DNA from: Naegleria gruberi
Taxonomy: Eukaryota
Assembly (NCBI GenBank): GCA_000004985.1
Contig: GG738891.1
Reading direction: 5' to 3' (one strand)
Length of the DNA stretch: 64,000 bases
The position numbers and the translations under genes were made by a program. The notes beneath the pieces are model-generated. The model was not told the DNA's origin. It worked only from the letters and a program-made list of their open reading frames with translations, and did not search any database. This document shows positions 1,977 to 61,506 of the stretch, one piece after another (the first letter of the stretch is position 1; each line of letters begins with the position of its first letter).

Positions 1977-2026
1977 NNNNNNNNNNNNNNNNNNNNNNNN
2001 NNNNNNNNNNNNNNNNNNNNNNNNNN
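1977..2026. other. Assembly gap (50 N).
   Basis: Run of n characters. Confidence 0.99.
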
Positions 2027-5309: not shown

Positions 5310-6244
5310 NNNNNNNNNNNNNNNNNNNNNNNNNNNNNNNNNNNNNNNNNNNNNNNNNNNNNNNNNNNNNNNNNNNNNNNNNNNNNNNNNNNNNNNNNNN
5401 NNNNNNNNNNNNNNNNNNNNNNNNNNNNNNNNNNNNNNNNNNNNNNNNNNNNNNNNNNNNNNNNNNNNNNNNNNNNNNNNNNNNNNNNNNNNNNNNNNNN
5501 NNNNNNNNNNNNNNNNNNNNNNNNNNNNNNNNNNNNNNNNNNNNNNNNNNNNNNNNNNNNNNNNNNNNNNNNNNNNNNNNNNNNNNNNNNNNNNNNNNNN
5601 NNNNNNNNNNNNNNNNNNNNNNNNNNNNNNNNNNNNNNNNNNNNNNNNNNNNNNNNNNNNNNNNNNNNNNNNNNNNNNNNNNNNNNNNNNNNNNNNNNNN
5701 NNNNNNNNNNNNNNNNNNNNNNNNNNNNNNNNNNNNNNNNNNNNNNNNNNNNNNNNNNNNNNNNNNNNNNNNNNNNNNNNNNNNNNNNNNNNNNNNNNNN
5801 NNNNNNNNNNNNNNNNNNNNNNNNNNNNNNNNNNNNNNNNNNNNNNNNNNNNNNNNNNNNNNNNNNNNNNNNNNNNNNNNNNNNNNNNNNNNNNNNNNNN
5901 NNNNNNNNNNNNNNNNNNNNNNNNNNNNNNNNNNNNNNNNNNNNNNNNNNNNNNNNNNNNNNNNNNNNNNNNNNNNNNNNNNNNNNNNNNNNNNNNNNNN
6001 NNNNNNNNNNNNNNNNNNNNNNNNNNNNNNNNNNNNNNNNNNNNNNNNNNNNNNNNNNNNNNNNNNNNNNNNNNNNNNNNNNNNNNNNNNNNNNNNNNNN
6101 NNNNNNNNNNNNNNNNNNNNNNNNNNNNNNNNNNNNNNNNNNNNNNNNNNNNNNNNNNNNNNNNNNNNNNNNNNNNNNNNNNNNNNNNNNNNNNNNNNNN
6201 NNNNNNNNNNNNNNNNNNNNNNNNNNNNNNNNNNNNNNNNNNNN
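5310..6244. other. Assembly gap (935 N) inside the transposon.
   Basis: Run of n characters. The true element length is unknown. Confidence 0.99.
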
Positions 6245-32750: not shown

Positions 32751-35222
32751 CAGTTTGTTGGTGTTGTTGTTTTTTGTTATTTAATTCTTTGTTAGCAAAC
32801 AAAGAGGAGGAGCTATGCTAAATCAGTCCCAAAATACAGGCTATTATATTGAGCATTCAGTTGGCATCTGTGCTACCTTATTGAACTTCTACAATAGATG
32901 AAGCTTGCTAATAAGCTCATTTTTCTGAGATCCTTTTCTGAAACATTGGATATACTTGTCGATATCATTGCACTTAATAGTACTTGTGAAGGAGCAAAAT
33001 GAGATTAAGAGCAAGTATCGTCATATACAGAATTTAAATAAGGAAACGCAGATGGATCGTAATAATGAACGGGAGCAAACAATGGTCTTTTCTCTGAAAC
33101 TCATTTTCCTCGATTTTGGTACCCAAGCCAAAATGCTCTGCTTCTAGGAGTGTCCCCCAAACAAGGGGAATGACTAAAGATTTCCTTACTTCCCAAGGCA
33201 GACGTCTGCCACTCGACCAGAAGATGATCTTCCTCCTGTGATGCTCTATTAATACCCATCTTTGAAAAATAGAATCTACATCCGGTTCAAGTTTGTGTTG
33301 CATCGTATCGAGAGAGTTGATTGGTCTCTCCAATTGTCCTCAAGGTATTACTCAACAAATAGGCTCAATATGGATCGGAATCAAGCAACTACAATCATTC
33401 TTAATATAGTTTATTTGAGATATTGTAGTCTTGACTTGTTAGCTTATTAATACTCAGAATTACTTCTTGTGGTTCTCTAATAGTTCAATATGATCGCTAA
33501 AGTTTGGGCCATCTAAACCTCTAGGAATCATCTTATTCGCAAATAATAATGTGGATCTAGATTTGATGAGGAAACAATCACCACCACGTATGCTTTGCAC
33601 TGGAGGCTATCACTCAAACATTTTGAAAGCCAAATATCCTCATTCGAATAATTAAATATAACAGCCGAATTGTGTGAAGAAAGCAAAAAATTGGACCACA
33701 CAATGAGCATTGTTCTGTGGATGATACCACCTTGTGGTAAAGTGAAAAACAAGCTAACAACAAGTGTAAATTCTTGTATTGTTGTGTTCCTAAAAATCAT
33801 CATGTCCAACAATCAGATTATTGCTAATAAAGAAGATTTATTCGGATAATCACAAAATCTTCTCCAACACAGTATTCAGCAAGGTTTGTATTGGTTGCTT
33901 GTTGGTTTCATCCACCCAGACTTAAGCTCCTTCATTCGTTGGTGGTGTAAAACGATGGAGAATGTTCTTCTTGGTGAATTGTGGATATCAACCTTATAGA
34001 CGTAAATCTAGCTTCGCATGACAAGGGAAAGTAATCTATTGTTACTGTGTTTAAACCTTTGGCTATCGTTAGTTTAAATCTTCTCCTCCATCACAAACCA
34101 ATCCAAGTTTTCTCATTTTTTTTGTTGAATATTTAACGGTAACAATTAGCGGAGCGAAAATATTTACTGAGTGGTGAAGTTTCCTTTGCTTTTCTTCACA
34201 AAACGCAGAGTGCCATATTAAAAGTTGATCATGATTTTGAAGATTGGTGACTCAAGAGTATGATTAAATTGTATAATTTAATTACAATTAATTGTAATAA
34301 TAAAATATTATTTCTATTTACCTTTAAAAAAATGTTTAAATGTGAATCCTTCAACATTTTTCTCCGAAACACTAGTACTATTTCCTTTGTTAAATAATGT
34401 AAATTTTCCAATTCAACAACATTAAAACAACAATATGTGGTAGCTGAGGAAAGTAATTGCAAATATTGTTTGATCGACAGTGAGCACTCACTACTTCGGA
34501 AGTCGATTCAACATCTCTCCAAGATTTGATAAACAAAATAATCAGAAGGCTTTCAAGACAATACAGTCCACATTCAACAGATTTACTCAAGCATTTAATA
34601 ATATTCTATTTCTTCTGGCCAATTCCATTCCTCCTCTGTGAACACTGTCAATGTTTATTCAAAACTGGATTCCGATTTATTGCCCTTCCTTGCTTTCCTT
34701 AAAATTCTTGGTGGAGAATATTTATTGCAACTTGTCCTCTCAAAGAACAAATGTATCTGCCAAGTTATTATAATTCTTCAAACGCCTTTTCGAATTTTGA
34801 CTCCATTCTGTACTTTCTCTTGCACTGTGCTCATAGATTTGTTGGAGAAATTAAGGTGTAGAAAGCAATTACTGGAGATTTATCCTGATATAATTACAAT
34901 GTTATTGGAAATTTAACATTCTCATTTACTATAACGAACAAATCACTTCCAAACTCTTAATTGTCTGCTCTATAATATATGGTGGAGAGTATTGCAATCT
35001 GAAGAGTACACCGTTCCCAAACAGACCTCAATATATACAAATTCACAATATCCATACGTATTATTGGCACAATCCCAACCAGGACTGACCAGTAAAGATG
35101 TTGAAGGAGATGTTGTCTAACCAGAAACACAGCAGTGACTGCTTTAAGAAATTAATTTAAAATATGGCTTTTAGTTGCGAAAGATATTCTAGTGTTTTAC
35201 CGTTTTGTGATTATAGATGTAA

Positions 35223-35295
35223 GTACCCTTGGCTCAATTGGAAGAGCATCGGCCTACGGAGCCGGGGGTTGTGGGTTCGAGTCCCACAGGGTATA
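35223..35295 (+). tRNA. tRNA-Arg (anticodon ACG), 73 nt, no intron.
   Basis: Cloverleaf by hand. Acceptor GTACCCT/AGGGTAT (G-U at 1:72). D-arm GCTC-AATTGGAA-GAGC. Anticodon arm TCGGC-CTACGGA-GCCGG, the same loop as known eukaryotic Arg-ACG. T-arm GTGGG-TTCGAGT-CCCAC. Discriminator A. Confidence 0.85.
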
Positions 35296-37179: not shown

Positions 37180-37260
37180 GCAGGGGTTCCCGAGTGGTCA
37201 AAGGGGGTAGACTCAAGTTCTACTGCGCAAGCTTCGTGGGTTCAAATCCCACCTTCTGCA
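37180..37260 (+). tRNA. tRNA-Leu (anticodon CAA), 81 nt, long variable arm, no intron.
   Basis: Acceptor GCAGGGG/CTTCTGC (two G-U pairs). D-arm CCC-GAGTGGTCAAA-GGG. Anticodon arm GTAGA-CTCAAGT-TCTAC. 12-nt variable arm. T-arm GTGGG-TTCAAAT-CCCAC. Discriminator A. Confidence 0.85.
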
Positions 37261-41139: not shown

Positions 41140-41698
41140 CTAATCCATTTTAATTGACAATTCTTTTTCCAATTCCTTTCCAAATTCAGAGTGAAATCTA
41201 TAAAAACTGTCGAGCATGTTGTGTTCACACACTTGTTGAATTTCATTGAAAATTGAAATTGAGATGATGCTTTCCAAATTGGTTCCGTTCATTGAATTGT
41301 AGATTTCTATAATTTCTGGAATACCATTTGTAGATCGAGCAATGTTCAATTCGAGAGGAGCTCCCAATATTACATAGGTCTTTACAATTGTTCTGAATAA
41401 TTCGACTCGTTTCTTATTCGATTTGATCATTTTGAATTGTTCAATGGCATTCCACATCATGACATCTTCAGGACAATAACTCTTTTCATTGAATAAAAGG
41501 AATTTTGAATTCCACTTTTTAGAGGTCAAACATTTCTTGATGTGATTCGAAGAGTTTCCTCCAGAACTTTGAGAATCTCTTGGTTTTGAAGAGGAGGTAC
41601 TTCTTTGATAGATAAAAACTGGAAGGAAATGAGCTACAAATGTATCCCATATACATCCAAATACAATAAACATTTGCCATGGAAAGAAATAGTCAACT
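41140..41698 (-). CDS. 7TM-RGS protein, copy A, exon 2 (TM7 plus RGS domain).
   Basis: A 48-nt intron (41699-41746) with acceptor AG restores the codon TT+A=Leu and continues VDYFFPWQMFIVFGCIWDTFVAHFLPVFIY (TM7). The RGS box follows: KWNSKFLLFNEKSYCPEDVMMWNAIEQF...ILGAPLELNIARSTNG...EHNMLDSFYRFHSEF. Compare the RGS consensus AP.EVNID and DSY.RFL.S. Confidence 0.6.
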
Positions 41699-41746
41699 CT
41701 TTACAATAAATGTTAACTATTTAAAAACTACTAAAAGGTAACTTAC

Positions 41747-42927
41747 AAAGTATTAATATCAGTAAAGAATGAAGGTATGGCATACAATAAACTTGATAAC
41801 AACCATCCTACACAAATTAAAAACAGCTCCAACTTAATTTTCCACACATCATTCTTCATAAACAGAGCTAGCACAAATAATCCAAAAATAATCAACACAT
41901 AAACTCCAAAATGAATTGCCATAATCACCAAATCAAGTGTTCCATTTCCACATCCTTCCACCGAAAGTAAATGAGTGCCCCGAACGAACGAAGATACTGA
42001 GCTATTCAATCTATCTGTTTCAGCAATAATGGCATTGTAATAATCTGCAACTCCAACTGAAAAGTAAATTATCAAGTGAATTCCATAAACAACCAGGAAG
42101 AGTAATCCAATGAATTTGGAGCTTGTGAAAAATCGATAGATTCTCAATTTTTGTTTGTCAAATTTGGAAGAACTCAATCTTGATATTTCTTGGCTGTTTG
42201 TAGAATTTTTGGAGGTTTTTCTTTTAGGAATTTCTACTTGGATGTGTGAATCAGCATTGGTTTGTTTAGTTTCAAGCTGTGAATTAGAATCAGTAGTAGT
42301 TTCTTCTTGATTATTCACCAAAGCAAGTGAACTAAACGATTGTGAAATGGAAACTCCACTCAAACTCTGCAGCTCCACACTATTTCCATTATTTCCACTC
42401 GATCCTTCCACCATAAAACTACTTAGATCATTCAACTCCATGCTTTGGCTCAATAACTTTCGTTTTCCAATTTTCACTTTCAATTGATTCATCCAAGTCA
42501 AGGCAATCAATCGAACACATCTCCCAATGATAATGGCAGCCAATCCAGGCACTGCCATCCAATAGGTGAAGGTAAATAGAAAGCACGGATAGGTCTTTCT
42601 GGAAATGACAACTCTCAACAGCTGAATTAATACGAAAGCATACGAAGTTAAAGTTCCCAGAACCATCAGAGCAGGATTTCTGGCAATGGATATGTAGTTA
42701 ACCTCCTTGTTGCCTATTCTGTTGGTTTTTAGTTTCCATTGTTTGTAGAAGAGGCCAATTAGACAGGCAATTACCATCACTGTGTAGAACCCAAGAAATA
42801 AACCAGCCGAAACTCGACTTGTGGGATAATCATCACATAATCCTCGATAACTCGTGTAGCCCATTTCAAGGAGAATAGGATGACATGCGGCTGATGTATC
42901 ATTGATAGAAGAAATAGAATAGTTCAT
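41747..42927 (-). CDS. 7TM-RGS protein, copy A, exon 1 (TM1-TM6).
   Basis: Real ATG at 42927-42925. Six hydrophobic helices with a Ser-rich loop between TM3 and TM4. GTAAGT donor at 41746-41741. Confidence 0.6.
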
Positions 42928-43152: not shown

Positions 43153-43720
43153 CTATATATCTTCAAATTTAATTCCCAATTCTTGTTCCAATTCCTTTCT
43201 AAATTCAGAGTGAAATCTCAGAAAACTATCAACCATGTTGTGTTCGCAAACCTGCTGAATTTCATTGAAAATTGAAATGGAAATTGAGATGCTTTCCAAA
43301 TTGGTTTCGTTAATCGAGTTGCAGAGTTCTATAATTTCTGGAATACCATTTGTAGATCGAGCAATGTTCAATTCGAGAGGAGCTCCAATCAAAATGTAGG
43401 TTCTCACAATAGTTCTGAATAATTCGACTCGTTTCTTATTCGATTTGATCATTTTGAATTGTTCAATGGCATTCCACATCATGACATCTTCAGGACAATA
43501 ACTCTTTTCATTGAATAAAAGGAATTTTGAATTCCACTTTTTGGAAGTTAAACACTTCTTGATGTGATTTGAAGAGTTTCCTCCAGAACTTTGAGAATCT
43601 CTTGGTTTTGATGAATTTCTATTCCTCTGATAGACAAAAACTGGAAGGAAATGAGCTACAAATGTATCCCATATACATCCAAATATAAGGAATAATTGCC
43701 ATGGAAAGAAATAGTCAACT
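43153..43720 (-). CDS. 7TM-RGS protein, copy B, exon 2 (TM7 plus RGS).
   Basis: 76-nt intron (43721-43796). The exon is about 95% nucleotide-identical to copy A exon 2, intron included. Confidence 0.55.
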
Positions 43721-43796
43721 CTAATTCACAATTATTTGCAAATCAAATTTCAATTACAATATTTCTTCTTCCAATTTAATGGATGTAACTACTTAC

Positions 43797-45007
43797 AATG
43801 TAGTAATATCACTAAAGAATGAAGGAACAGCATAGGTAATTGTCGACAACAACCATCCCACACAAATCAATGACAATTCCCATTTGATTTTCCACACATC
43901 ATTCTTCATAAACAGAGCTACAATCACAAATCCCAACAAGAGTATCAAATAAGCTCCAAAATACGTGGCCATCACCACCAAATTATAAGTTCCATTTCCA
44001 CATCCCTGCTCTGATAACAAATGAGTTCCCACCACAAAGGACAACTTTTTGTTTTGTAACTTTTCCAATGAACCTGATTGGACATTGAAATAATCAGCAA
44101 CTCCAACTGAAAAGTAAATGATCAGATGGGTTCCATAGATCAGTGCAAATAGAATAGCAATGAATTTTGAGCTGGTAAAAAATCGATACATTCTCAATTT
44201 TTGCTTGTCGAATCTGGAAGATCCCAATCGAATAATTTCTTCACTATTTTCAGAGTTTCTCTTGTTGTTTGCTGTTTCATTATTTGATCTAGTCACTATA
44301 CTTTCGTCCTTCTTTTCTTTCTGTTCTGAACTACTTTCCACATTTGTTGCTGGGCCAAGATCTTGTTGATCTTCATTCATCAAGGCCCCAATCGAACTAA
44401 ACGATTGTGAAATGGAAACTCCACTCAAACTCTGCAGCTCCACATTACTTGCACTCATCAATTCTACTCGATTCTCATCCATCAATAAACTCCTACTCTC
44501 CGTATTCTCCAACATGAAACTCTGACTCAATAACTTTCGTTTTCCAATTTTCACTTTCAATTGATTCATCCAAGTCAAGGCAACCAATCGAACACATCTC
44601 CCAAGAATAATGGCAGCCAATCCAGGCACACCCATCCAATAAGTGAATGAAAACATGAAACAGGGAAATAATTTCCTCGAAATGACAACTCTCAACAATT
44701 GAACTAGTGTGAAAATGTACGAGGTGATAGTTCCCAAGACCATTAGTGTTGGATTTCTTGCGATGGATATGTAATTCACCTCTCTGTGTCCTATCCTATT
44801 AGTTTTTAATTTCCATTGTTTGTAGAATTGACCAATTAAACTGGCAATCACCAGAGCTGTGTACAATCCGAGTGTCAGAGCTGCCAAAACTCTACTCGTT
44901 GGATAGTCATCACATAATCCTCGATAGTTTGTGTAGCCCATGCGAAGGAGTGCTGGATGACACGCAGCCGAAGTGTCATTTATTGCATAAATTGATGTGT
45001 AGTTCAT
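43797..45007 (-). CDS. 7TM-RGS protein, copy B, exon 1.
   Basis: Paralog of copy A. The ATG at 45007-45005 (MNYTSIY) aligns with the copy A start. An upstream in-frame ATG at 45127 is also possible. GTAAGT donor at 43796. Confidence 0.55.
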
Positions 45008-50849: not shown

Positions 50850-52292
50850 TTATAAATTATTTGAATCTGAAATTAAAAGTGGAGAAATATTATCCATTAT
50901 GGATTCGATTGATTCTAAAGATTTCTTCAATTCTTTTGAATCTTTCATTTTCCTTTTGAGATTGAGATGTTTTTCTCTCATCACTTCCAGTTTTTCCTTC
51001 AGTTTTGCAATCTTTTCCTCGTTTTGTTGAGATGACTTTTTCAGTTGATCATTTTCTGATTGTTGAGAAGAGAGCTCACTCATCAAGTCTCGTATCATGG
51101 TTTGGTCTTCTCTACTTTCTCTACTTTCTGTTGTGTTAGTATTGCTAGTGTTGAAATTTTGTTGTTGGGAAATGATTGGTTTTGTTGGACTAGCTTTAGA
51201 TGCTGGTTGGTAGTCTCTAAATTCAGTTCCACTCCTCAGTTTAACAATGGAGCATGAAAAAGTATTGTACAATTCTGAAAGTCCCTTATTGGACGAAGTT
51301 TCATCAAAATCCATGAATGGGAAGAGCCACTTTTTCAAAACAACGGCCATTGACTGAAGACTTCTCGTAAAGATAACACTCGCACCATGAGGAAGATCAT
51401 CAGTCTCCCTAGGATGTGAATCTGCCAACAAGAACATTCCAGTCTTGAAATTGTAAAAGATCAATACTGTTTCTGGTTGTTTTGTAAATATGGCACATAG
51501 TGGTCTCCTCATTTGATGAGAACAGCTCTCAATTGTTTCCAGAGTTGTGAGAAACGATGGGCCTTTGACTGATTTTTGAATTTCTGGATGCACTAGCTCT
51601 AGATAACTACTCATTCTATTATTGATATTCATTACTTCCTCAAAAGACAAGTTTCCAAGTCGAGGATCTTGCATGCATCCACACTCAATTACCTTGTCAA
51701 TAGTGGTGGGACTCCAAGAGAATGATCTCTCAGAATCCAACACTCCGTTCAACAGTTGAATAGCAAATTCACATGCTATTGAAGTACAAGCATTCTTTCC
51801 CCCAAATGAGTACTGGTCCTTACTACTCACTACAACTGCAATGTGTTCAATCTTTAATCCTGTTGTGGTTGCATCTACATGTCTGTAATGGGTTGAAAAT
51901 AGAGCAAGACTTGCTTGTTTCGAATTGTTTTTTCCACTTTGAGATTCTTCAAATTTCTCACTACAAACACTCGATCCATAAACATGATCTAAAAAGATGG
52001 AATAATTTGTATAGATTTCTCCACAAATTGGGCAAGTGTTTTGTGTTGGAGAGGGAGTTTGTTTTGAGTACATTCCTTGTGATGAGGGTGGTTTGGTTGG
52101 TGAAATTGTTGGAAGTGAGGCTCCCCTACTAAATTGTGACTGTTTGATAGGGGAGATGTGATGAATGGGCGAAGAAGAGTAATCGTACAAATCTGTAGAG
52201 TGTGTAGCATGTCCTGTATCACTAATTCCACTCAAATCCAAATCCGAAGCATGCAGCGATTCAAATGAATCCTTATATGAATTTGATCTCAT
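50850..52292 (-). CDS. Hypothetical protein with a C2H2-like Zn-finger motif (CPICGEIY...H), a central putative Cys-protease-like core (GKNACTSIACEFAIQLL ... HPRETDDLPHGASVIFT) and a C-terminal coiled coil.
   Basis: ATG at 52292. The central segment has a Q/N-x-x-C-[TS]-x-hydrophobic pattern reminiscent of MINDY/ZUFSP-type deubiquitinases. This is weak inference only. Confidence 0.35.
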   Translation of the reverse strand: MRSNSYKDSFESLHASDLDLSGISDTGHATHSTDLYDYSSSPIHHISPIKQSQFSRGASLPTISPTKPPSSQGMYSKQTPSPTQNTCPICGEIYTNYSIFLDHVYGSSVCSEKFEESQSGKNNSKQASLALFSTHYRHVDATTTGLKIEHIAVVVSSKDQYSFGGKNACTSIACEFAIQLLNGVLDSERSFSWSPTTIDKVIECGCMQDPRLGNLSFEEVMNINNRMSSYLELVHPEIQKSVKGPSFLTTLETIESCSHQMRRPLCAIFTKQPETVLIFYNFKTGMFLLADSHPRETDDLPHGASVIFTRSLQSMAVVLKKWLFPFMDFDETSSNKGLSELYNTFSCSIVKLRSGTEFRDYQPASKASPTKPIISQQQNFNTSNTNTTESRESREDQTMIRDLMSELSSQQSENDQLKKSSQQNEEKIAKLKEKLEVMREKHLNLKRKMKDSKELKKSLESIESIMDNISPLLISDSNNL

Positions 52293-52369: not shown

Positions 52370-52870
52370 TTCTAAAAGGTCGTGAATAAACCTCTCCGCG
52401 GTATGTTTTCTTATTTTTTTACTAATATTTTTTTGTAGAATTTTTGGCGCCATATTTTTTAAATCTCTTCTCGTGAGGATCATCACTACTTTGTGATATT
52501 AAGCCATCTTTTTCATTGATCAAAATATTAAAATTAATTTTCATCAAAATAATCGCTCTCGAATTCTCAACCATCTTAAAATCCATCTAACTTCATGACA
52601 AAATCCATCTAACCTCATATCGATTCAATTTAATAAAATAGCAATATATAATTCGATAAAAAACATTTTATACCAATAGTGTGATGATTAAAAAAAATTG
52701 GGTTGCAAATTTGCAAAAAATTTTATTTATTGCAAAGTACCAGCATTAACCAATGAATCAGCAACACCCTTCAAGAATGAGTAAGCATTTGGATTCTTGT
52801 GTGGTTCTCCGAATAACCCTACAATGACAGCTGACTTTAAGACAACTCCTGATACTCCTTGCTTCTTTGT
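52370..52870. repeat. Segmental duplication, copy 1 (profilin 3' coding end plus 3' flank).
   Basis: About 500 bp, roughly 90-95% identical in inverse orientation to 60128-60600. Confidence 0.7.
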
Positions 52871-53125
52871 TGAAGAAAAGCCTTGGAAGTTTTCTTCATC
52901 AGCAACCAAACCCATATATTTGACACCACCCAAAGTGATACCAGTAGCAGGGACGGAAGATGGATTAGCAACTTGACCAGCCAAATTCTTGGCTTCTTGA
53001 GCAGTAACAGCCCATCCGTCAGTAACACCCCAGATGGTACCATCTCTACCCATGATAAAACCCTTTTGGATCAAACCATTTGATGGAGCAACGAATTGAG
53101 AGTCAACGAAAGGAGTCCAAGACAT
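52727..53125 (-). CDS. Profilin.
   Basis: 132 aa. MSWTPFVD...GFIMGRDGTIWGVTDGW...LGGVKYMGLVADEE...KSAVIVGLFGEPHKNPNAYSFLKGVADSLVNAGTLQ matches profilin family motifs. Strong GGT/GCT/GTT/CCA codon bias. aaaATGtct start. Confidence 0.85.
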   Translation of the reverse strand: MSWTPFVDSQFVAPSNGLIQKGFIMGRDGTIWGVTDGWAVTAQEAKNLAGQVANPSSVPATGITLGGVKYMGLVADEENFQGFSSTKKQGVSGVVLKSAVIVGLFGEPHKNPNAYSFLKGVADSLVNAGTLQ

Positions 53126-53921
53126 TTTGTTGTTGTATTTTTTTTTATGTTTTAATATTTGATTGATTGGCTTGAATATTTGACGTGTTTTTGCTTGGTT
53201 GACCATAAGCTTGTCAAGTTAAAAACCTGTCCATCAATTAATACAAAATGCTTCCGTCACCAGACAAAACTCGTCAATCTTGAAGATTGTAAAAATAATG
53301 ATTCGATTCCGCGATTAAAAAGCTTAAAATTTTGACAGGTTTTGTCAGTTAGAAAGAAAATGCTTATTGATTGGTTTCACACTACTCACAAGACTGTATT
53401 GAAATAGATTAATTCATTGAAAAGAAAATGTCCAAACTCTAATCAAGTTCCATTCAAGAAATACTATTGAAATTGACCAAGTTCTATATTTTTACAAAAT
53501 ACCAAAAGAGACGAATTGCCCAATCAGTCTATATGCAGGAATTTTATGGATTTGGATAATTGTGTTGAGGTCTAGGATTGTAGACTAGTTGAATAGGATA
53601 CAATGCTGGAAGTGATCATTATTCCTTGATGGGCTGCTTTACAATTTTAAAAAACTTGAGCACTGATAAGGAATGTTGCAATTTTTCATCAACAGAGTAA
53701 TGCAATATTCCCTTCTTGCATTTCCTTTGGCTAATCTTGTAAAAGTTTGAAATGGAACAATACTTTGAATATGAAAGTAATTCCTTGGTGAAAATGGATA
53801 ACAAAAATATGCTTGTTCATATTCAAGGATATCGAATCAAAGGAAAAATAGTCTTACTTAATACTTGGCAATAGACGAGTGTGAGGAAAGGAATGAAATG
53901 TTCCCTTAGGGTCTGTTCAAG

Positions 53922-55114
53922 ATGGACTCAACAATCGGTGAGTTAAAAGAGGAGAATTTGCAATTCTTCTCCCAAATTGTTGTGGATTTTTATCATAAAA
54001 ATCATAAGGCAGTTGTAAAACAAGGCATTGTGACAGATAAAAAGCCAATTGTGAAATCTTTTAATTTGGATAAGAGTGCAATTAATTATTTAGTATTTCT
54101 TTGTAGAAATTCAATACGATTTGGAACACCCTTGGGTTAATCAAATCAGTGCTCAGAATTTACCTCAATCAGTGTTTGTCAAGTCATTGCCAAGAAGAAT
54201 TAGAGGAAGAATTGTCAGGTTTTGTTGTATTGATCATTACTGTTTTTTCTCTCAAATCCTCAGTAATGATTATTGATCATCATTTACATAAAAAAGTAAT
54301 GATCATATTATGAGAGGAAAGTATCATTTCAGAGGATATTCTCCAAAGACTATTACCAAAGAAGAAAAGTTTAAAACTGTGGAAACTATTGCCAAGCTTC
54401 ATGCTTCTGGTATGGCTTATTTCAGATCACTTCCAGAGAAAGAAAGGCAATACAAGATTGACCAATTAGATAGAAAGGCACCAGTATTTTGCAAGAATAC
54501 ACAAAACACACCAGACCTTATCATGTTGATTCCACAAATTTGCTTCTGGTAAAATGGTTGACAATGATATTCATCCTGAAATTATTGAACTTGCTAAACA
54601 ATTCTTCCAATCTTCAGTTATCAATGCCAAGTTAAAGTTATGTGAGGGAGCAGAGGAAATGCTTTCATTCGTTCACAGAGATTTACATTTCAATAATATT
54701 ATTCAATTCGACCATGTCAGTGTTAAACTCGTTGATTGGCAATGCTGTGGATTGGGTAATCCTCTATTTGATGTATTTTACATGATATGTTTCACATCTG
54801 ATTTGAATACAGTTGAATCTGTCGAGAAGGAATATTTGGACAATTACTATATTTGCATTTGCAAGGAATTGGAGCAATGAGGACTTTCCAAACCAAAACA
54901 ATTAGAAAATTATGAAAATTATTTGGAATTCTACAAGAATGCCATGCTTAGTTTCTTCACTTGGTGTCTTGCCATCCAACTCATTTCAACTCAAAGCAAG
55001 GACAAGAATACTGAACTTGGTATTTCTGCCATAAATTTCCTCCAATCAGGAGCTCATCTCCTATTAAAGTATGGTAATTTAAAGAAGAGAGTTAATAAAA
55101 TTCTCAGCCAATAA
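53922..55114 (+). CDS. EcKinase/choline-ethanolamine kinase-like (APH-fold) phosphotransferase. It is fragmented across four ORFs by frameshifts or unresolved short introns.
   Basis: SVFVKSLP (beta3 Lys region), FVHRDLHFNNIIQFD (catalytic-loop H.D....N) and VKLVDWQ (the DFG-equivalent metal-binding motif) appear in consecutive ORFs at 54140-54880. There are frame changes at about 54140, 54310 and 54553. Confidence 0.45.
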
Positions 55115-55207
55115 TGATGAGAAATAACACTAAGGTTGTTTGAATTATCATCTCTGATTATTATTTTAAATTGTGATGAATTTTAATTTTTTTTAATTAA
55201 TAAAAAA

Positions 55208-55511
55208 ATGATTACCAACAATAATGCAGTTTCGGAGGTGACCATTTCATCTTCATCATCACCAGAAGAACATGGTTTTGTTATTAACAAGACTCAAGAA
55301 TTTCTGAAGAGTAAAGGATTTGGGTGGTTGATGGAAGTGGATTCGTCATCAGATAGTAAGGAAAATATTTTGGGAGGAGAATCGGTTGAACAACCATCAA
55401 TTTTAGAAGAATTGGATATTGATGTGGCCGAAATTATATTCAAAGTCAAGAGAGTAATTGTACCTTTTGGAAAATTTAGTAGTGAAGATTTGGAAAAATT
55501 GAGAGAACCAG
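55208..55511 (+). CDS. Yip1 domain family protein, exon 1.
   Basis: aaaaaaATGatt start. PSILEELDIDVAEI...VIVPFGK matches the Yip1 family N-terminal cytoplasmic region. GTAAGA donor at 55512. Confidence 0.6.
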
Positions 55512-55606
55512 GTAAGAGGATCAAATCGATCATTCTCACAATAATTTTCTCATCAATTATATTTAAATATAATTAATAATAATTTAATGATTGAAATAAT
55601 ATTTAG

Positions 55607-56058
55607 ATTTTTGGGGACCATTCTTTATAATTTTAGCTTATGCCTTCCTTGTGGAATTAACTTATTTACAACTTAAAGTCATTACTTGGATGTATTTGAT
55701 TTGGTTTATTGGATCTGCATTGCTTTTTGCACTTGGTAGATTATTCACTCCAGCAAATATTGAAGAAGCCAGATCACTTAAAAAGCTCAAGATGAATCAA
55801 GAAGGTTTCCAACCAATTGGAACATCAGATAATGCCCAATTTCCTTCTAGTGACAATGATGCTCCACAAATTTCTGAAGAAGAACAAAAGATTATTGATG
55901 TTCACTATGGACAAGTCATGTCATTTGTTGGATATTCCCTGATACCTCATGTTGCCATTCTCGTAGTTTTACTTCTTTTCAGACTTATTTTCGATCCTAT
56001 ATTATTCTCTTTAGTCTCACTTATTTTGAACTTGTGCTCAATTGCTTGGTCTACAGTG
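55607..56058 (+). CDS. Yip1 family protein, exon 2 (multi-TM core).
   Basis: The acceptor at 55605-55606 gives G+AT=Asp, producing ...EPGDFWGPFF (the Yip1 D[LF].GP motif). Several TM helices. GTAAGT donor at 56059. Confidence 0.6.
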
Positions 56059-56128
56059 GTAAGTTTAATTTTCAGAATTCATTTAGCCTTATTCTAATTT
56101 CAATAGTCTTGTGTTTATTTATTCACAG

Positions 56129-56167
56129 CTGATAATTATTATCTGGAAAAGAAGAAGAAACTCTTGA
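56129..56167 (+). CDS. Yip1 family protein, exon 3 (short C-terminal segment LIIIIWKRRRNS*).
   Basis: Acceptor ttcacAG at 56127-56128, phase 0, TGA at 56165-56167. Confidence 0.45.
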   Translation: MIIIIWKRRRNS

Positions 56168-56351
56168 TTGTTCCAATCTTGTTATTATATTTATACTTTT
56201 TCTCCATGCAATCAGGTGTTTAAATCTTTACATTCAATTAAATAATTAAATAATATTTTATTATTTCAAATCACATTGGACATTGGATATCCAAATTGTT
56301 CATTGTAAAATGTTAAAATATCCAATTTTTGATGGAAACACAAATTAAAAA

Positions 56352-57965
56352 ATGGCAAGAAAACGATTGCACACTTCCGAACATGATGACGAGGAAGAGA
56401 ATCAACTTGTTGATCAAGAAATAATTGATGAAGAACAAGAAGAGGAAACAAAACATGATGATAAAGATATTATGGAAGATGATGAAGCACAAGATGAAAA
56501 TGATGGAGAACTTGATTTTGTCTACTCTGCTTCCGATGTTTTCACCAAACCAAAAAAGAAAAAGAAACACTCACATAGTGATGGATGCTGTGTTGTTAGG
56601 GATATTGTCAATGTTGATATTTCAAAGGCTGGTTCTTTTGGTAGAATTTCAGAGTTGGCCTTCTCCTATATTTTGTTATATACGCACACAAAAGATACAA
56701 CCAATTTGGCCTCTGTTTGTAAATGGACTTATTCAGTATTCTTATCTCTTAGATCATACAGTTTGAATAACATTCGTTTGGAGTATTTGAATGGCAGATG
56801 TCAACAGTACAAGACTTTGAATAGTTTGTTTAAAGTAGATAACATGAATAGAATGACTGGCTTTATGAAATATTTACCAAACTTTGAACCTGTTGATATT
56901 ATGAATGATGACATTACTTTAAAGCTTCCAAACAAGTTTACCAAGAGAAGAAATGTTCTCATTGATCTGTATAATGATTTTACTGCAGAGGAGAAGAGTG
57001 ATGCGAGTCCTGTGAAGAGAGATTTTCATTTTGATAGGATGAATCATTTAAAGTGGGAAACCTCTTTTCCAGAAAACATTGAAGAATTCCAATCTGTAGT
57101 GTCAGAAAATGCTGAACTTGGAAAGCACTTGTTGGACTGTTTGTGGGAAAATAACAAGGAGAATAGGGAGAAATTCATTATCGCTGGTGGTTTTGTTCTT
57201 TCATGTTTAACATCTAATACGCATTCATCTGATATTGATGTATTCTGTATTCAAAATGGAGAATCCAAAGAAAATTGCCACATGTCATTGAGAAGGATTT
57301 TATTCAAGTTTGGAGAATTAGCCAAGAAACACAAGTTTAATTATGGTATTGTGAAGAATAATGGTTGTATCAATATTTGCTTTGAGAAGAGATCTAAAAT
57401 GATACAATTTATTCTGAGAAGAGTGGACACCATTGAGGAATTAATGACCTTCTTTGATATTGATTGTTGCAGATTTTGTTTTGACGGTGAAAGAGTCTAC
57501 ACAACAAGAGAGGGTATTGCCAGTCTTAATGTCAAGTACAACTTTGTACCAGCAGAGCACAAGGAGAAGGGAATGTACACCTCCAGAGCATACAAATACG
57601 GAATGAGAAACGTGATGACTCTTTTCACAAAAGATCACTCTCTCGATCATTTTCATTCCAGAAAACTCAAACTCGATAGAATTAATGAAGCCCTGGAACA
57701 GAATGATACCGAAGAATCAGAAGTGCTCTTTGGTGATGGTACTGACAAGAAGGATTTTGAAGGATTATATTCTATTTTCAATGACTTTTCACTTTCGTAT
57801 GATATTATCAAATTGGTAAGAGTTGTGGGAGTGAGAAAATTCTTGTCACACAATTGGGAGAACTATTATGGATCAAATTGGGATGGCATATCATACAATC
57901 CTCAAGATTATGAAAACAATGAAGAAGAAGTCAAGGTTCTTTTGATGAAAAGTTGGAAGCAATGA
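56352..57965 (+). CDS. Hypothetical 537-aa protein with an acidic N-terminus (DEEENQLVDQEIIDEEQEEE).
   Basis: aaaaaATGgca start. Single ORF. No confident domain. The motif FIIAGGFVLSCLTSNTHSSDIDVFC was noted without assignment. Confidence 0.5.
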   Translation: MARKRLHTSEHDDEEENQLVDQEIIDEEQEEETKHDDKDIMEDDEAQDENDGELDFVYSASDVFTKPKKKKKHSHSDGCCVVRDIVNVDISKAGSFGRISELAFSYILLYTHTKDTTNLASVCKWTYSVFLSLRSYSLNNIRLEYLNGRCQQYKTLNSLFKVDNMNRMTGFMKYLPNFEPVDIMNDDITLKLPNKFTKRRNVLIDLYNDFTAEEKSDASPVKRDFHFDRMNHLKWETSFPENIEEFQSVVSENAELGKHLLDCLWENNKENREKFIIAGGFVLSCLTSNTHSSDIDVFCIQNGESKENCHMSLRRILFKFGELAKKHKFNYGIVKNNGCINICFEKRSKMIQFILRRVDTIEELMTFFDIDCCRFCFDGERVYTTREGIASLNVKYNFVPAEHKEKGMYTSRAYKYGMRNVMTLFTKDHSLDHFHSRKLKLDRINEALEQNDTEESEVLFGDGTDKKDFEGLYSIFNDFSLSYDIIKLVRVVGVRKFLSHNWENYYGSNWDGISYNPQDYENNEEEVKVLLMKSWKQ

Positions 57966-58310
57966 TTAGAAAATTAACATTTGAAGATACTCACTACTTT
58001 TGTCTGAGTGCTAGAGAATTATTCTTGAGAGATGCCACTATTTATTACTCTGATTACTATTTTGATTCACATCTTAGAGGAAAGTACAACTTTTGGAAGT
58101 GCTATTGTTGTGGATTCTACAGACATTCGAGAAAACTGAGTTATACCAATGATGGACACGATATGTGCGATACTTGCTCTCTATTTAATAGTAGAATGAG
58201 ATCTTTGAAGAGAGATTTGGTTGGAAAGGTTGCTATTGTGACTGGTGCAAGAATCAAGATTGGTTTTGAGACTGCTCGTGCTCTTTTGAAAAATGGAGCT
58301 ACTGTTATTG
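57962..58310 (+). CDS. Atypical short-chain dehydrogenase/reductase (SDR), exon 1 (Cys-rich N-terminal extension plus Rossmann TGxxxGxG).
   Basis: The ATG at 57962 overlaps the TGA of the upstream gene (ATGA). CYCCGFY...CDTC motifs, then GKVAIVTGARIKIGFETARALLKNGATVI. GTATGT donor at 58311. Confidence 0.5.
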
Positions 58311-58356
58311 GTATGTATCAACATTTCATTTGGTATTTTAACATTTTTATTCATAG

Positions 58357-58531
58357 CTACTTCCAGGTTTACTCATGATGCCTATGAAAAGTATGCAGAA
58401 TGTGATGACTTTGAGGATTGGCAATCTCGCCTCTTTATTTATCCATTGAACTTGAAAGATGGTGATTCAATTCTTTCATTCTGTGCCTATGTAAAGAATA
58501 ATTTTTCTAAAATTGACATTCTCATTAACAA
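58357..58531 (+). CDS. SDR, exon 2.
   Basis: 46-nt intron. The exon reads ATSRF...FSKIDILIN, with a GTAAGT donor at 58532. Confidence 0.5.
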
Positions 58532-58585
58532 GTAAGTATTATTCACCTTGACTGAGTTTTGTAAACTAATTATTGATCTATACAG

Positions 58586-59369
58586 TGCTGCTCAAACTGT
58601 GAGAAGACCACTCAAGTATTATGAAAAATTATTGGAGAAAGAAAAGAGTAACTTATCAGAAACTCATCTTGGAGAAATCAAAACCAATGACTCTACCGAG
58701 TTGGTTCTCAAGAATGAAAATAAGAAAATTGTAATTTACAGTGACGAATTATCAATCAAGAACCACTGTCTCAATATTACAGAACATTACAGTTTAACTA
58801 AGGAAGATTTTGATTCCAACCTCCATAGCATGTTTCCTGAGGGAGAAACTGATCAATTTGGTGAACAAAAAGATAATAGAACCCACCACTCTTGGACATA
58901 CTTACTTCCAGAAATTGATGCTATTGAACTATTGGAAACTACAATGATTAACAATATTGCACCAACAATTATTGTCTCTCAACTAATGGACATTATGAAA
59001 CCTAAAGTGGAAGATCTAGAAAATGTAACTGCTGAAGACATTTTGACTGGCAAAAACTCATCCTACATTATCAATGTTGTTTCACATGAAGGTATTTTCA
59101 ATATTGATGGTAAAACAGATGGTCACGTCCACACCAACATGTCCAAAGCTGCTCTCAACATGCTCACCAGAAGTGCCTCAAACTACTATGCCAAGAATGG
59201 AATCTTGATGAATTCATGTGATACTGGTTGGATTTCATCTGCAATCAAAACCTTTATGAAACCACCTCTCACTGTAAAGGATGGTGCCTATAGAATTTTA
59301 TATCCTATTCTCACTTGTTCATTAGATTATGGCAAGTTGTATAAGAATTATCATGAATCCAAGTGGTAG
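58586..59369 (+). CDS. SDR, exon 3.
   Basis: The splice completes IDILINNAAQ (the NNAG motif). Further on come IINVVSHEG and HVHTNMSKAALNMLTRS (the YxxxK region with the Tyr replaced). The exon ends in a TAG. Confidence 0.5.
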
Positions 59370-60127
59370 TAAAAATTGAAAAAAGGATTAAAAATGTTAT
59401 TAATAATGATGACAAGTTTTGAACAGGTTAAGCCTGTTTACAGCAATCCTAAACTTGATATGAATAAATTCATAAAGTATTCAATGCACTTTGAGCTATT
59501 CTGAAATCCGAACAAGAATTGTGGTGAAGTGAAGCTAAGAGAATTCAAATGGATGTTCCAGTAGAAGGTCTCAGTTCACTCAACCCAATTGTCATTGATG
59601 ACGAAGATGATGAAGTAATCAAGCTTTGTTTTTTGAGTATGTGTTTGAAGAGGATCCACTAAAGAAAGGTTCCAGTAAAATTAATATCAAAAGAAAAAAT
59701 CAGATGATTTTCAAGTTCTCATCGGATTGTTGGATTTCATTTTTAGTGGATTCTTCCAAAATCCGTGCTTTCAGTGTGTCTGTTGTATAATTTTTTGCCT
59801 TATTCTTTTTTAAAGTTACTCTTTATTTCTAAAAAAGTTGCACTAGTGCAATTTTTTATAGAGATTCTACCTCAATGTTCTTTTCATCTTGATTGTCTCA
59901 TCCTTCTGGCCATTCCTCGTCCTACTGATCAACCTTAATAATTAGGTAAGTAATGAAATATACTCTTAAGAAAAAGTACTGAAAGAGAGTGGATTCGGAT
60001 CAATTTATATCAACAAGAAGACAGCCAATGAAGGAGCCAAGTCAAAGATGATGTTGTGTAACGACAACATGTTTGTTCCTAACACAGAAGTTAAAAACAA
60101 CTCTCTAGATGTATACAAATGCAGTAG

Positions 60128-60262
60128 CAAGGAGTATCAGGAGTTGTCTTAAAGTCAGCTGTCATTGTAGGGTTATTCGGAGAACCACACAAGAATCCAA
60201 ATGCTTACTCATTCTTGAAGGGTGTTGCTGATTCATTGGTTAATGCTGGTACTTTGCAATAA
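60128..60262 (+). pseudogene. Profilin 3' fragment (last 44 codons ...QGVSGVVLKSAVIVGLFGEPHKNPNAYSFLKGVADSLVNAGTLQ*) within the inverted duplicate.
   Basis: Exact coding match to the profilin C-terminus. No upstream profilin sequence: the breakpoint lies at ...cagtag|caaggagtatc. Confidence 0.6.
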
Positions 60263-60600
60263 ATAAAATTTTTTGCAAATTTGCAACCCAATTTTTTTTA
60301 ATCATCACACTATTGGTATAAAATGTTTTTTATCGAATCATATATTTCTATTTTATTAAATTGAATCGATATGATGTAGTGTGTATTTTGTCATGAGGTT
60401 GGATGGATTTTAAGATGGTTGAGAATTCGAGAGCGATTATTTTGATGAAAATTAATTTTAATATTTTGATCAATGAAAAAGATGATCCGAGAAGAGATTT
60501 AAAAAATATGGCGCCAAAAATTCTACAAAAATTATATAATTAAAAAAAATAAGAAAACATATAGGAGGAGGTTTTAATTCTGTCATGATTAAGAGAACCT
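60128..60600. repeat. Segmental duplication, copy 2 (inverted).
   Basis: The reverse complement of the profilin 3' end and downstream sequence. Several small indels. Confidence 0.7.
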
Positions 60601-60873: not shown

Positions 60874-61506
60874 ATGGCAAAATTACTCCTCGCTCTACTA
60901 ATCATTGTAATCTCCCTAGTAGCTTTATTAAGCGTGGATAATGTTGTGGAGGCAATTGTTTGCCAACAAAATTTTGAATATCCATTGTATAAACAATGCG
61001 GCCAGCCATGGTCTAATGACTTGTTTGGTCGTAGCTCTATTTGTTATACTGGATCTTTGATTACATCAATGAGCATGGCTTTGAACGGTCGGAAGATATC
61101 TTCCATGAATCCTGGTCAATTAAATTCTTGGGCACATACAGCTCTTAAAGAATGGTTTGATAAGTGGAATGATGATGATAGAGCATTGGAAAATGCCTTA
61201 GTACATGGCTTGGAAAAGCTTGGCATGAAAAACACTAATTACTATCCGAATAATAATTGGATTGGAGAGATGGTTACTGATCTTTGCAAGGGAAAGGTTG
61301 TTCTTTTACAGGTTGCCAAAGATGACTATAACAAATACTGGACTCTGGCCACTGGTTTTGATGAGACAACATTCACTGTTAATAATCCAGCCTATTCCAA
61401 GACAGTTTTTAATGCAATGGAAGTTAAGAGTGCTGTTGTTTTCGAACAAATCAATCAAGAATTCATGAAATATTTTGATTGTCATGTTGAAATAGTTAAA
61501 TTGTAA
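60874..61506 (+). CDS. Small secreted protein of about 210 aa with a putative papain-fold (C39-like?) peptidase-like core.
   Basis: aaaaaaaATGgca start. Signal peptide MAKLLLALLIIVISLVALLSVDNVVEA. The motif Q-CGQPW...SSICYTGSLITSMSMAL loosely resembles the Cys-motif of the 7529 gene (SCGATSLQMAL). The His motif is not evident. Confidence 0.35.
   Translation: MAKLLLALLIIVISLVALLSVDNVVEAIVCQQNFEYPLYKQCGQPWSNDLFGRSSICYTGSLITSMSMALNGRKISSMNPGQLNSWAHTALKEWFDKWNDDDRALENALVHGLEKLGMKNTNYYPNNNWIGEMVTDLCKGKVVLLQVAKDDYNKYWTLATGFDETTFTVNNPAYSKTVFNAMEVKSAVVFEQINQEFMKYFDCHVEIVKL

Follow-up and report, generated by a model that had tools for sequence, protein, structure and literature searches.

Inverted copies of the profilin 3' end bracket a 7.3-kb gene block in Naegleria gruberi

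The profilin locus and its inverted repeat

The window, by which we mean the whole 64-kb stretch of Naegleria gruberi DNA that was analyzed, carries an intact, intronless profilin gene whose product is 100% identical to D2VRA1 / XP_002673381 (Pfam Profilin, E = 6e-26). The 3' end of this gene, together with DNA downstream of it, recurs in inverse orientation at the far side of a block of genes. We refer to the two inverted copies as the left and right arms, and the features of the locus are as follows.

50850-52292, minus strand: left outer neighbor gene, 480-482 aa, with its first ATG 109 nt outward of the left arm
52402-52866: left arm, 465 nt, made up of the profilin CDS 3' end (52727-52866) and 325 nt of downstream flank (52402-52726)
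52430-52473, partner 60488-60531: conserved block of 44 nt, perfect, containing the palindrome TTTTTGGCGCCATATTTT, a candidate promoter element
52474-52501: stretch of 28 nt present in the left arm only, not a multiple of three, which breaks the sole small ORF of the flank
52651-52863, partner 60126-60338: perfect tract of 213 nt (CDS, 137 nt; 3' UTR, 76 nt)
52727-53125, minus strand: intact intronless profilin gene, 132 aa
52867-60122: inter-arm block, 7256 nt, which includes the profilin 5' part and promoter
about 53924-55114, plus strand: EcKL/APH kinase-like gene, with a frameshift and an in-frame TGA
55208-56097, plus strand: weakly Yip1-like gene
56352-57965, plus strand: Gad2-like ORF of 537 codons
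57962-59369, plus strand: SDR gene with two GT-AG introns
59370-60122: ORF-free stretch of ~750 nt
60123-60561: right arm, 439 nt, reverse complement of the left arm
60128-60262, plus strand: partial profilin copy (codons 89-132 and the TAA stop), identical to the gene at every position
60874-61506, plus strand: right outer neighbor gene, 210 aa, Peptidase_C39_2-like with a hydrophobic N-terminus, its ATG 312 nt past the outer end of the right arm

An earlier sequence-only reading of this DNA had proposed that the end of profilin and its 3' flank are duplicated in inverse orientation, and gapped blastn bears this out, aligning the arms over 467 columns at 90.6% identity with 4 gap openings (654 bits, E = 0). 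An inverted-repeat search resolved the pair into an ungapped core of 362 nt that is 97% complementary (52505-52866 / 60123-60484) and a second ungapped segment of 60 nt at 88% (52414-52473 / 60488-60547). This is the sole high-identity inverted repeat in the window, where the arm sequence has no further occurrence. The indels between the arms are small, as had been noted, consisting of the 28-nt stretch missing from the right arm and one of 2 nt. The 7.3-kb block described in the same reading was also found with its expected contents of kinase-like, Yip1 (weakly), hypothetical and SDR genes.

Homology ends sharply on both sides. At the inner junction (60122/60123), nothing significant aligns beyond 52866/60123, the observed score being reached in 89 of 500 shuffles, and the breakpoint previously placed between cagtag and caaggag is accurate to within 5 nt, positions 60123-60127 also matching at 4 of 5 bases. 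When profilin was used as a tblastn query, residues 1-132 were recovered at 53125-52730 and residues 89-132 only at 60128-60259, in agreement with a copy that holds exactly the last 44 codons and the stop and has no upstream profilin sequence. The copy had been assigned to 60128-60600; its start stands within those 5 nt, but its end lies at ~60561, as further outer extension of the arms to 52370/60600 is at chance level (42 of 500 shuffles). The outer junction at ~52401/52402 is likewise sharp, and the duplicated 3' flank, put at ~370 bp in that reading, is in fact shorter, amounting to ~325 nt on the left and ~300 nt on the right. The left arm runs on into the interior of the block as the rest of profilin, and the right arm runs on into the exterior.

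The duplication is almost certainly real, since its alignment has E = 0, it lies in a gap-free stretch of one contig, and the arms differ from each other by both substitutions and gap columns. We consider it highly improbable that the second copy is an assembly artefact arising from a chimeric clone or a mis-joined allelic haplotype in the Sanger assembly. The N. gruberi genome is a draft, with 1977 contigs in 784 scaffolds (PMC6125883), which speaks for such an error, but the arms are separated by 14-20 substitutions and 30 gap columns and are therefore not the same reads assembled twice. Furthermore, both arms are set in unique sequence on either side, the only runs of N in the window (1977-2026 and 5310-6244) are at least 46 kb away from them, and an allelic mis-join would not put an inverted 440-bp piece within a continuous contig.

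The feature is a genuine inverted partial duplication of unique DNA, and it is lineage-specific. Outgroup comparison covered profilin loci from N. lovaniensis, Willaertia magna and two metagenomic relatives; for the SDR gene, loci from Willaertia and three metagenomic ones were taken. None of the genes flanking the window's block were present at these profilin and SDR loci, and the gene order around profilin or the block was kept in no compared outgroup, with the Gad2-SDR pair as the sole conserved pair. A homology search found no orthologue of the 537-aa ORF, the central anchor of the block. The 3' flanks of the close relatives L009-L012 aligned neither to the arms nor to one another, and scans of metagenomes with 24-25-mers for N. 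gruberi-like contigs of the alternative orientation returned no match, nor did matching the exact profilin sequence bring up an N. gruberi record.

The profilin fragment and the duplicated flank

The fragment in the right arm is preceded directly by an in-frame TAG at 60125-60127, where the gene has AAG, and it contains no in-frame ATG. We scanned 1.5 kb upstream of the fragment for splice donors, taking any in-phase GT that ended an open frame of at least 25 codons. No in-phase GTAAGT or GTATGT was present in this region, and the scan yielded non-consensus sites only, namely GTAATC at 59615 and GTAAAG at 59274, the latter within the last exon of the SDR gene. A homology search that included the N. 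gruberi proteome found the fragment in no protein except profilins. Judged by these features of its sequence, the right copy is a dead, non-functional gene fragment, and we rejected the idea that it serves as an exon of a chimeric or new gene, the in-phase donors being weak as well as non-consensus.

Comparison of the coding part with known profilins identified its source. The fragment and the local gene differ at 0 of 135 nt, versus 12 of 135 for the D2UZH7-type paralogue, and divergence in the non-coding part of the arms is 6.4%, versus 16-26% at third positions against the paralogue type and the nearest relatives. These values indicate that the fragment is young and was copied from the local gene. 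Derivation from D2UZH7, the second profilin of N. gruberi, was rejected on the same count and on the peptide (GSFSEP vs GLFGEP). We also rejected the remnant of an old second profilin gene in the style of N. lovaniensis, whose tandem profilin pair is old, with 17 synonymous differences and unrelated flanks; the window's fragment has no synonymous difference and is accompanied by the local gene's 3' flank.

Each arm consists mostly of intergenic or promoter DNA. The flank in the left arm is both the profilin 3' flank and the upstream region of the left neighbor gene, and both outer neighbors read outward from their arms, so the two outward-facing predicted genes now have upstream sequence in common. 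The flank is non-coding, since its one small ORF is disrupted by the 28-nt stretch; a 46-codon ORF in the right arm (60403-60543) was rejected as a gene on this basis, its left-arm version being destroyed by the indel. Searches of the arms with Rfam (E <= 1) and ARAGORN gave no non-coding RNA and no tRNA, and neither arms nor block contained a transposase, recombinase or RNA gene by Pfam, Rfam and ARAGORN.

The shared upstream DNA raises the possibility that the ~300 nt of intergenic sequence is what matters in this duplication, giving both outward-facing genes shared regulation, for instance via the GGCGCC palindrome. The upstream region would originally have belonged to the 480-482-aa gene or, under inversion, to the C39-like gene. 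The flank does point outward to a gene start in both arms, and the perfect 44-nt block has persisted in the most diverged part of the arms. Within the 64 kb, exact TTTGGCGCCA is confined to the arms; at up to 1 mismatch there are 7 matches vs 1.4 expected, four of which are the two arms, each read on both strands. This evidence is purely positional, however, and a clean block of 44 nt is unremarkable among about 6 mutation events. There is also no evident functional link between the two neighbors, and we hold a regulatory role to be very unlikely.

Two further origins for the locus were examined and rejected. A transposon with terminal inverted repeats does not match a locus in which one arm encodes the conserved C-terminal end of a host protein, shared with orthologues, and there is neither a transposase nor significant similarity outside the arms. 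Foreign origin of the block is at odds with GC content and skews that are uniform over 48-64 kb.

Possible origins of the duplication and possible flipping of the block

Two origins would fit the sequence equally well, namely an inversion with staggered breaks and a copy-and-paste repair that left the block in place. Taken as a whole, the best explanation is a micro-inversion of the 7.3-kb block via staggered breaks, a reading we prefer tentatively and which comes close to being probable. The two strands would have been cut at either side of a 440-465-bp piece, made up of profilin codons 89-132, its 3' UTR and intergenic DNA towards the next gene, with a simple break at the other end of the segment. 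Both overhangs would then have been filled in and the segment rejoined upside-down, so that one of its ends carried the intact profilin and the opposite end was left with a stranded duplicate of the profilin tail. Later, the outer half of the arms would have diverged by ~6% plus indels, with the inner 213 nt remaining identical through conversion, or by chance given recency.

The geometry of the locus fits the staggered-break model, since the left arm joins the interior, the right arm joins the exterior and the junctions are sharp. Non-repetitive inverted duplicates stand at both ends of the segment (52867-60122), with no transposon, tRNA or Rfam feature. The model was established in Drosophila and would be carried over to Naegleria here. 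In flies, inverted duplications of unique sequence at segment ends have mostly been left behind by staggered-break inversion as its footprint and did not bring it about (Ranz et al. 2007, PLoS Biol 5:e152, PMC1885836). This is a causal direction that the earlier sequence-only reading had overlooked. These inversion-associated duplications have a median length of 321 bp, range from 46 bp to 1.9 kb and show 88 +/- 5% identity, and 12 of 18 inversions were duplicated at one breakpoint only (PMC1885836). The size and identity of the Naegleria arms fall within this published range (PMC1885836).

Copy-and-paste repair without inversion is a possible, if somewhat doubtful, alternative to the staggered-break inversion. 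A double-strand break in the intergenic region between the SDR and C39-like genes would have been mended with ~450 bp copied in inverted orientation from the nearby profilin 3' region, whether by ectopic synthesis-dependent repair, as 'filler DNA' or through a replication template switch, with the orientation of the block constant and the fragment inert. Such repair would explain the sharp homology ends, the startless fragment and a source gene 7.3 kb away. Imperfect microhomology at the inner junction (CAGTAG vs the gene's AAGAAG) is typical of it, and a plausible intergenic region of ~1.06 kb remains when the right arm is taken away. On the other hand, it requires the coincidence that the promoter-side end faces outward to a gene as it does in the original, and it is disfavored by the fact that spacers in short-range template switches are usually much smaller than 7.3 kb; nothing else specific stands against it.

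Recombination between inverted repeats can invert the DNA between them, and the 465- and 439-nt arms share an uninterrupted identical tract of 213 nt of the type that NAHR uses, although the minimum in Naegleria may differ. The repeat is therefore a plausible present-day substrate for homologous recombination that flips the block. No gene would be broken by a flip through the arms, and profilin would be unchanged since the coding parts of both arms are identical.

The distribution of differences between the arms was considered in this light. Differences are concentrated in the outer half, with divergence of ~6-9% plus indels in the distal flank and none in the inner 213 nt. This unevenness has P = 0.04-0.2 if clustered substitutions count as single events (5-8 events), a weakly significant suggestion that gene conversion between the arms produced the perfect inner tract, with recency or chance as the alternative.

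The same pattern bears on an active flip-flop, in which recombination between the arms repeatedly inverts the 7.3-kb block and both orientations exist among chromosome copies or in the population. The N. gruberi genome being multi-copy on this account, each arm would alternately complete profilin, and recombination together with purifying selection would keep the coding and proximal 3' UTR sequence identical. The lack of decay in the 'dead' fragment would then be due to flipping and not to recency, and the upstream element shared by the neighbors would be a side effect. The perfect tract is exactly the coding part plus the proximal 3' UTR beside a distal flank that has diverged, and an unchanged profilin is encoded in either orientation, as flip-flop would have it. 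We nevertheless consider it unlikely, as the tract is only marginally unexpected when clustered substitutions are taken as single events, one recent conversion or chance accounts for the pattern as well, no recombinase is present and a flip switches no gene on or off. A programmed invertible switch was rejected, since no recombinase emerged when every ORF of the block and its flanks was scanned with Pfam, and the genes are intact either way. Overall, the feature looks like the remnant of an ordinary structural rearrangement.

Significance and comparison with known systems

The importance of the locus is modest. It offers a small, clean example of the type of duplication that marks inversion breakpoints in flies, here from a free-living amoeba that branches deeply, and profilin function is not evidently affected by it. 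Confirmation of the inversion in a sister strain would extend the staggered-break mechanism to a very distant eukaryote and would make the locus a dated marker of micro-rearrangement for a genus with poorly conserved gene order. On the practical side, short-read assembly and mapping of the profilin 3' end will be ambiguous at the repeat, and the orientation of the block may vary between strains.

Inverted low-copy repeats are known to mediate recurrent NAHR inversion, as in the repeats flanking emerin and filamin at human Xq28 and the int22h repeats of F8. The Naegleria locus resembles these in having inverted arms around a gene block, a long perfect tract, conversion-compatible signs and a flip that would be structurally neutral. 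Unlike them, its arms are 10-100 times shorter, and an essential single-exon gene contributes one of them. Dead-on-arrival partial duplicates offer another parallel, as promoter, start codon and two thirds of the CDS are all missing from the right copy and a stop directly precedes it; in contrast to such duplicates, its coding part is undecayed (0/135 nt) next to non-coding sequence that has diverged.

Profilin duplication has happened repeatedly in this genus, and the N. lovaniensis tandem pair and the N. gruberi D2UZH7 locus belong to the same family as the copy in the window. Those duplicates are complete and expressed-looking, and their homology is confined to the CDS with synonymous differences only, which marks them as old and under selection. 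The window copy, by comparison, is partial and inverted, extends into the 3' flank and is free of synonymous differences.

The closest comparison is with the Drosophila duplications of Ranz et al. Those occur in flies at the ends of chromosomal-scale inversions, whereas the segment described here is 7.3 kb long, belongs to a heterolobosean amoeba and has an inversion that we infer. Otherwise the two are alike, consisting of unique, partly protein-coding sequence inverted at both ends of a segment and being one-sided, with arms of 440-465 bp vs a median of 321 bp and 90.6% vs 88 +/- 5% identity (PMC1885836). In both, one copy is degenerate and presumably non-functional, and it is the intact copy that joins the segment's interior, the degenerate one joining the exterior (PMC1885836).

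The inverted repeat and the block between its arms

A repeat search over 51-62 kb found one strong inverted pair, 52505-52866 / 60123-60484, in which 362 nt are 97% complementary at a spacing of 7256 nt, together with a weaker extension of the arms at 52414-52473 / 60488-60547. Gapped self-comparison of the whole window joined these segments into arms at 52402-52866 and 60561-60123 (90.6% identity over 467 columns, 654 bits, E = 0), and this profilin-tail pair was the sole high-identity inverted repeat in the 64 kb. The comparison bears out the sequence-only reading that the end of profilin and its 3' flank recur as an inverted partial duplication. The inner ends given in that reading (which placed the repeat at 52370-60600) also stand, and its outer ends were about 35 nt too generous, since similarity past 52402/60561 is at chance level (42 of 500 shuffles reach the observed score). 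Similarity past the inner ends 52866/60123 is likewise at chance level (89 of 500 shuffles).

The arms differ by a 28-nt indel present only on the left (52474-52501), one 2-nt indel and 14-20 substitutions, a count that varies with how the indel borders are aligned. These differences argue against the second copy being an assembly artefact, as does the unique sequence surrounding each arm with no gap nearby, making this source unlikely. The only N runs in the window are at 1977-2026 and 5310-6244, so both arms lie within continuous sequence. The profilin-tail duplication is a further example of a type of structural feature already known.

The profilin gene itself is 100% identical to N. gruberi D2VRA1 / XP_002673381, which identifies the window as nuclear DNA of this species, with a GC content of 33%. 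ORF and domain annotation showed that the kinase-like, Yip1, hypothetical and SDR genes earlier assigned to the block were essentially right.

Features of the block and its surroundings, with the tRNA genes of the window
First ATG at 52292, minus: 480-aa gene, outside the left arm
52727-53125, minus: profilin ORF, 132 aa (Pfam E = 6e-26)
52867 to about 53900: profilin 5' part and promoter
About 53924-55114, plus: EcKL/APH-type kinase-like gene
55208-56097, plus: two-exon gene with a sub-threshold Yip1 match (E = 0.012)
56352-57965, plus: 537-codon ORF
57962-59369, plus: SDR gene with two GT-AG introns
59370-60122: about 750 nt with no ORF above 57 codons
ATG at 60874, plus: Peptidase_C39_2-like gene, 210 aa, outside the right arm
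35223-35295, plus: tRNA-Arg(ACG)
37180-37260, plus: tRNA-Leu(CAA)

Two genes within the block appear interrupted. The kinase-like gene appears damaged, with ORFs 54310-54552 and 54554-54880 in different frames and only 1 nt apart, which leaves too little space for an intron, and past an in-frame TGA (54878-54880) that frame stays open for another 77 codons. The kinase-like gene is either a pseudogene or affected by sequence errors. Other heteroloboseans encode single Gad2-SDR fusion proteins, and the 537-codon ORF corresponds by homology to their Gad2-domain (PF26128) portion, matching the fusion protein of a metagenomic relative at 38.8% over 446 aa, and the same domain architecture occurs in Acrasis kona and a EukProt protein (P0011). 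A single frame encodes both parts in the metagenomic relative. The N. gruberi sequence shifts frame somewhere between 57885 and 57932, in a (GAA)n run, and its 537-codon and SDR ORFs share the four bases ATGA (57962-57965). No recorded N. gruberi protein is identical to the 537-aa product, and an ancestral Gad2-SDR fusion gene was split here either by a sequencing error or by a real frameshift.

Elsewhere in the window, a giant open frame (13329-32780, minus strand; about 6,480 codons) is made up of many diverged internal repeats, with 64-80% self-similarity throughout 16.8-31 kb. A repeat unit also has a match in a gene that lies at one end of a Naegleria-like metagenomic contig. A direct tandem duplication at 41149-42927 / 43168-45007 (about 1.8 kb, 77% identity) probably represents two adjoining paralogous genes.

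Content of the arms

The first 5 nt of the right arm match the profilin gene at four positions, and the single mismatch converts profilin codon 88 from AAG to TAG, placing a stop codon directly upstream of the fragment. The fragment (60128-60262, plus strand) then comprises codons 89-132 and TAA with no differences from the local gene. It contains no in-frame ATG, and no open frame in the 1.5 kb upstream ends in phase at a donor resembling GTAAGT/GTATGT, the sites of real introns in this window. A profilin homology search of a collection that includes the N. gruberi proteome found the fragment peptide only in profilins. As it lacks an ATG, an in-phase donor and a carrier protein, and adjoins a stop, we conclude that the fragment belongs to no gene.

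Profilin 3' UTR and the intergenic DNA beyond it make up the other 300-325 nt of each arm. The right arm has a 46-codon ORF there, which was rejected as coding, since the 28-nt indel destroys it in the left arm, showing that the outer part of the arms is non-coding; no Rfam families or tRNAs matched in the arms. Because profilin and the 480-aa gene to its left are both on the minus strand, the non-coding part of the left arm is also the upstream region of the 480-aa gene, stopping 109 nt before its ATG. The right arm directs the same sequence outward at the C39-like gene and stops 312 nt before that ATG, so that the two outward-facing genes have about 300 nt of upstream DNA in common. Within the otherwise most diverged part of the arms lies a 44-nt perfect block (52430-52473, partner 60488-60531) that includes the palindrome TTTTTGGCGCCATATTTT, which we take to resemble an E2F-type site; the exact core TTTGGCGCCA occurs in the two arms and nowhere else in the window.

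A further palindrome, TTGCAAATTTGCAA, this one perfect, directly follows the profilin stop (52691-52728 / 60261-60298) and explains why the repeat finder listed the arms as a "direct" repeat too. This palindrome may act as a 3'-end or terminator signal.

Source, age and uneven divergence of the copy

A second N. gruberi profilin, D2UZH7, maps to a different scaffold. A contig encoding exactly D2UZH7 departs from the fragment at 12 of 135 nt and also in the peptide (GSFSEP against GLFGEP), compared to 0 of 135 for the local gene, so the fragment either derives from the profilin gene 7.3 kb away or was converted by that gene. The arms diverge by 6.4% in non-coding sequence; at third codon positions, divergence amounts to 16% against the D2UZH7 type and 24-26% against the nearest relatives. 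The arm duplication is younger than these splits.

All differences between the arms fall in the outer 250 nt, save one at the breakpoint, and the inner 213 nt (52651-52863; 137 nt CDS and 76 nt 3' UTR) are identical. Such a clean run appeared in none of 20,000 simulations if 20 substitutions were independent. The substitutions are clustered at 52422-52429, beside the 28-nt indel, and at 52588-52614 in a small tandem repeat, and with 5-8 underlying events the probability of the run becomes 0.2-0.04. The clean tract hints at conversion of one arm by the other, or at constraint.

Recombination between inverted repeats flips the intervening DNA, and the 213-nt perfect tract is a potential substrate for it. 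A crossover there would leave all genes intact and switch none on or off, as the other arm would complete profilin with the same 44 residues. A programmed switch or transposon is excluded by the lack of any recombinase or transposase among the genes at the locus. A passive orientation polymorphism of the block is possible; exact look-up found no other N. gruberi record, and metagenome scans were empty.

Gene order in relatives and origin of the repeat

Profilin is all that the window has in common with the profilin loci of N. lovaniensis, W. magna (Willaertia) and metagenomic relatives, and at the SDR loci of relatives the Gad2-SDR pair alone is shared. Gene order is also reported to be poorly conserved between N. 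gruberi and its congeners (PMC6125883). Short contigs of very close relatives end too soon for gene order, and their 3' flanks do not align. In the closest orthologues, two ENA metagenome contigs (L011 and L012) compared with window 52620-53311, the profilin CDS is 89% identical and the 5' flank 82-87% identical over at least 186 nt, and the 97-103 nt of available 3' flank do not align from 5 nt past the stop. This mismatch could mean that the 3' side decays faster, or that one lineage has a rearrangement breakpoint immediately after profilin.

One origin consistent with the arms is a staggered-break inversion. The ancestral order would have been the 480-aa gene, the ORF-free stretch, SDR through kinase-like gene (all reversed relative to the present), profilin on the plus strand, its 3' flank and the C39-like gene. 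The two strands would have been nicked on either side of the now-duplicated piece, with a break at the other end of the segment, after which both overhangs would be filled in and the segment rejoined upside-down. The product would match the present arrangement: at the left end a complete profilin whose tail runs on into the interior, at the right end a stranded profilin tail that adjoins the exterior, and two junctions that are both novel and sharp. Alternatively, a break between the SDR and C39-like genes could have been repaired by reverse copying of the nearby profilin tail, which also fits; the inner junction shows imperfect microhomology (CAGTAG against AAGAAG), compatible with such a repair. 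We slightly favor the staggered-break inversion, because it explains why the copy brackets the block and faces outward, and the gap in support between the two mechanisms is small. The inversion may well have produced the repeat, rather than the repeat driving inversion.

The tandem profilins of N. lovaniensis (PYSW02000039.1, 8853-9251 and 10001-10399) are quite unlike this inverted partial copy. They encode identical proteins, their 17 differences are all synonymous and at third codon positions, and their flanks are unrelated, limiting homology to the CDS and 5 nt upstream; the pair is an old duplication under selection. Among Drosophila inversions, 17 of 29 carry duplications of the staggered-break kind, with a median length of 321 bp (46 bp to 1.9 kb) and a mean identity of 88 +/- 5%, lying at one breakpoint only in 12 of 18 cases, and most copies are presumed non-functional (Ranz et al., PMC1885836). 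The N. gruberi arms, at 440-465 bp and 90.6% identity, fall mid-range among these inversion-associated duplications.
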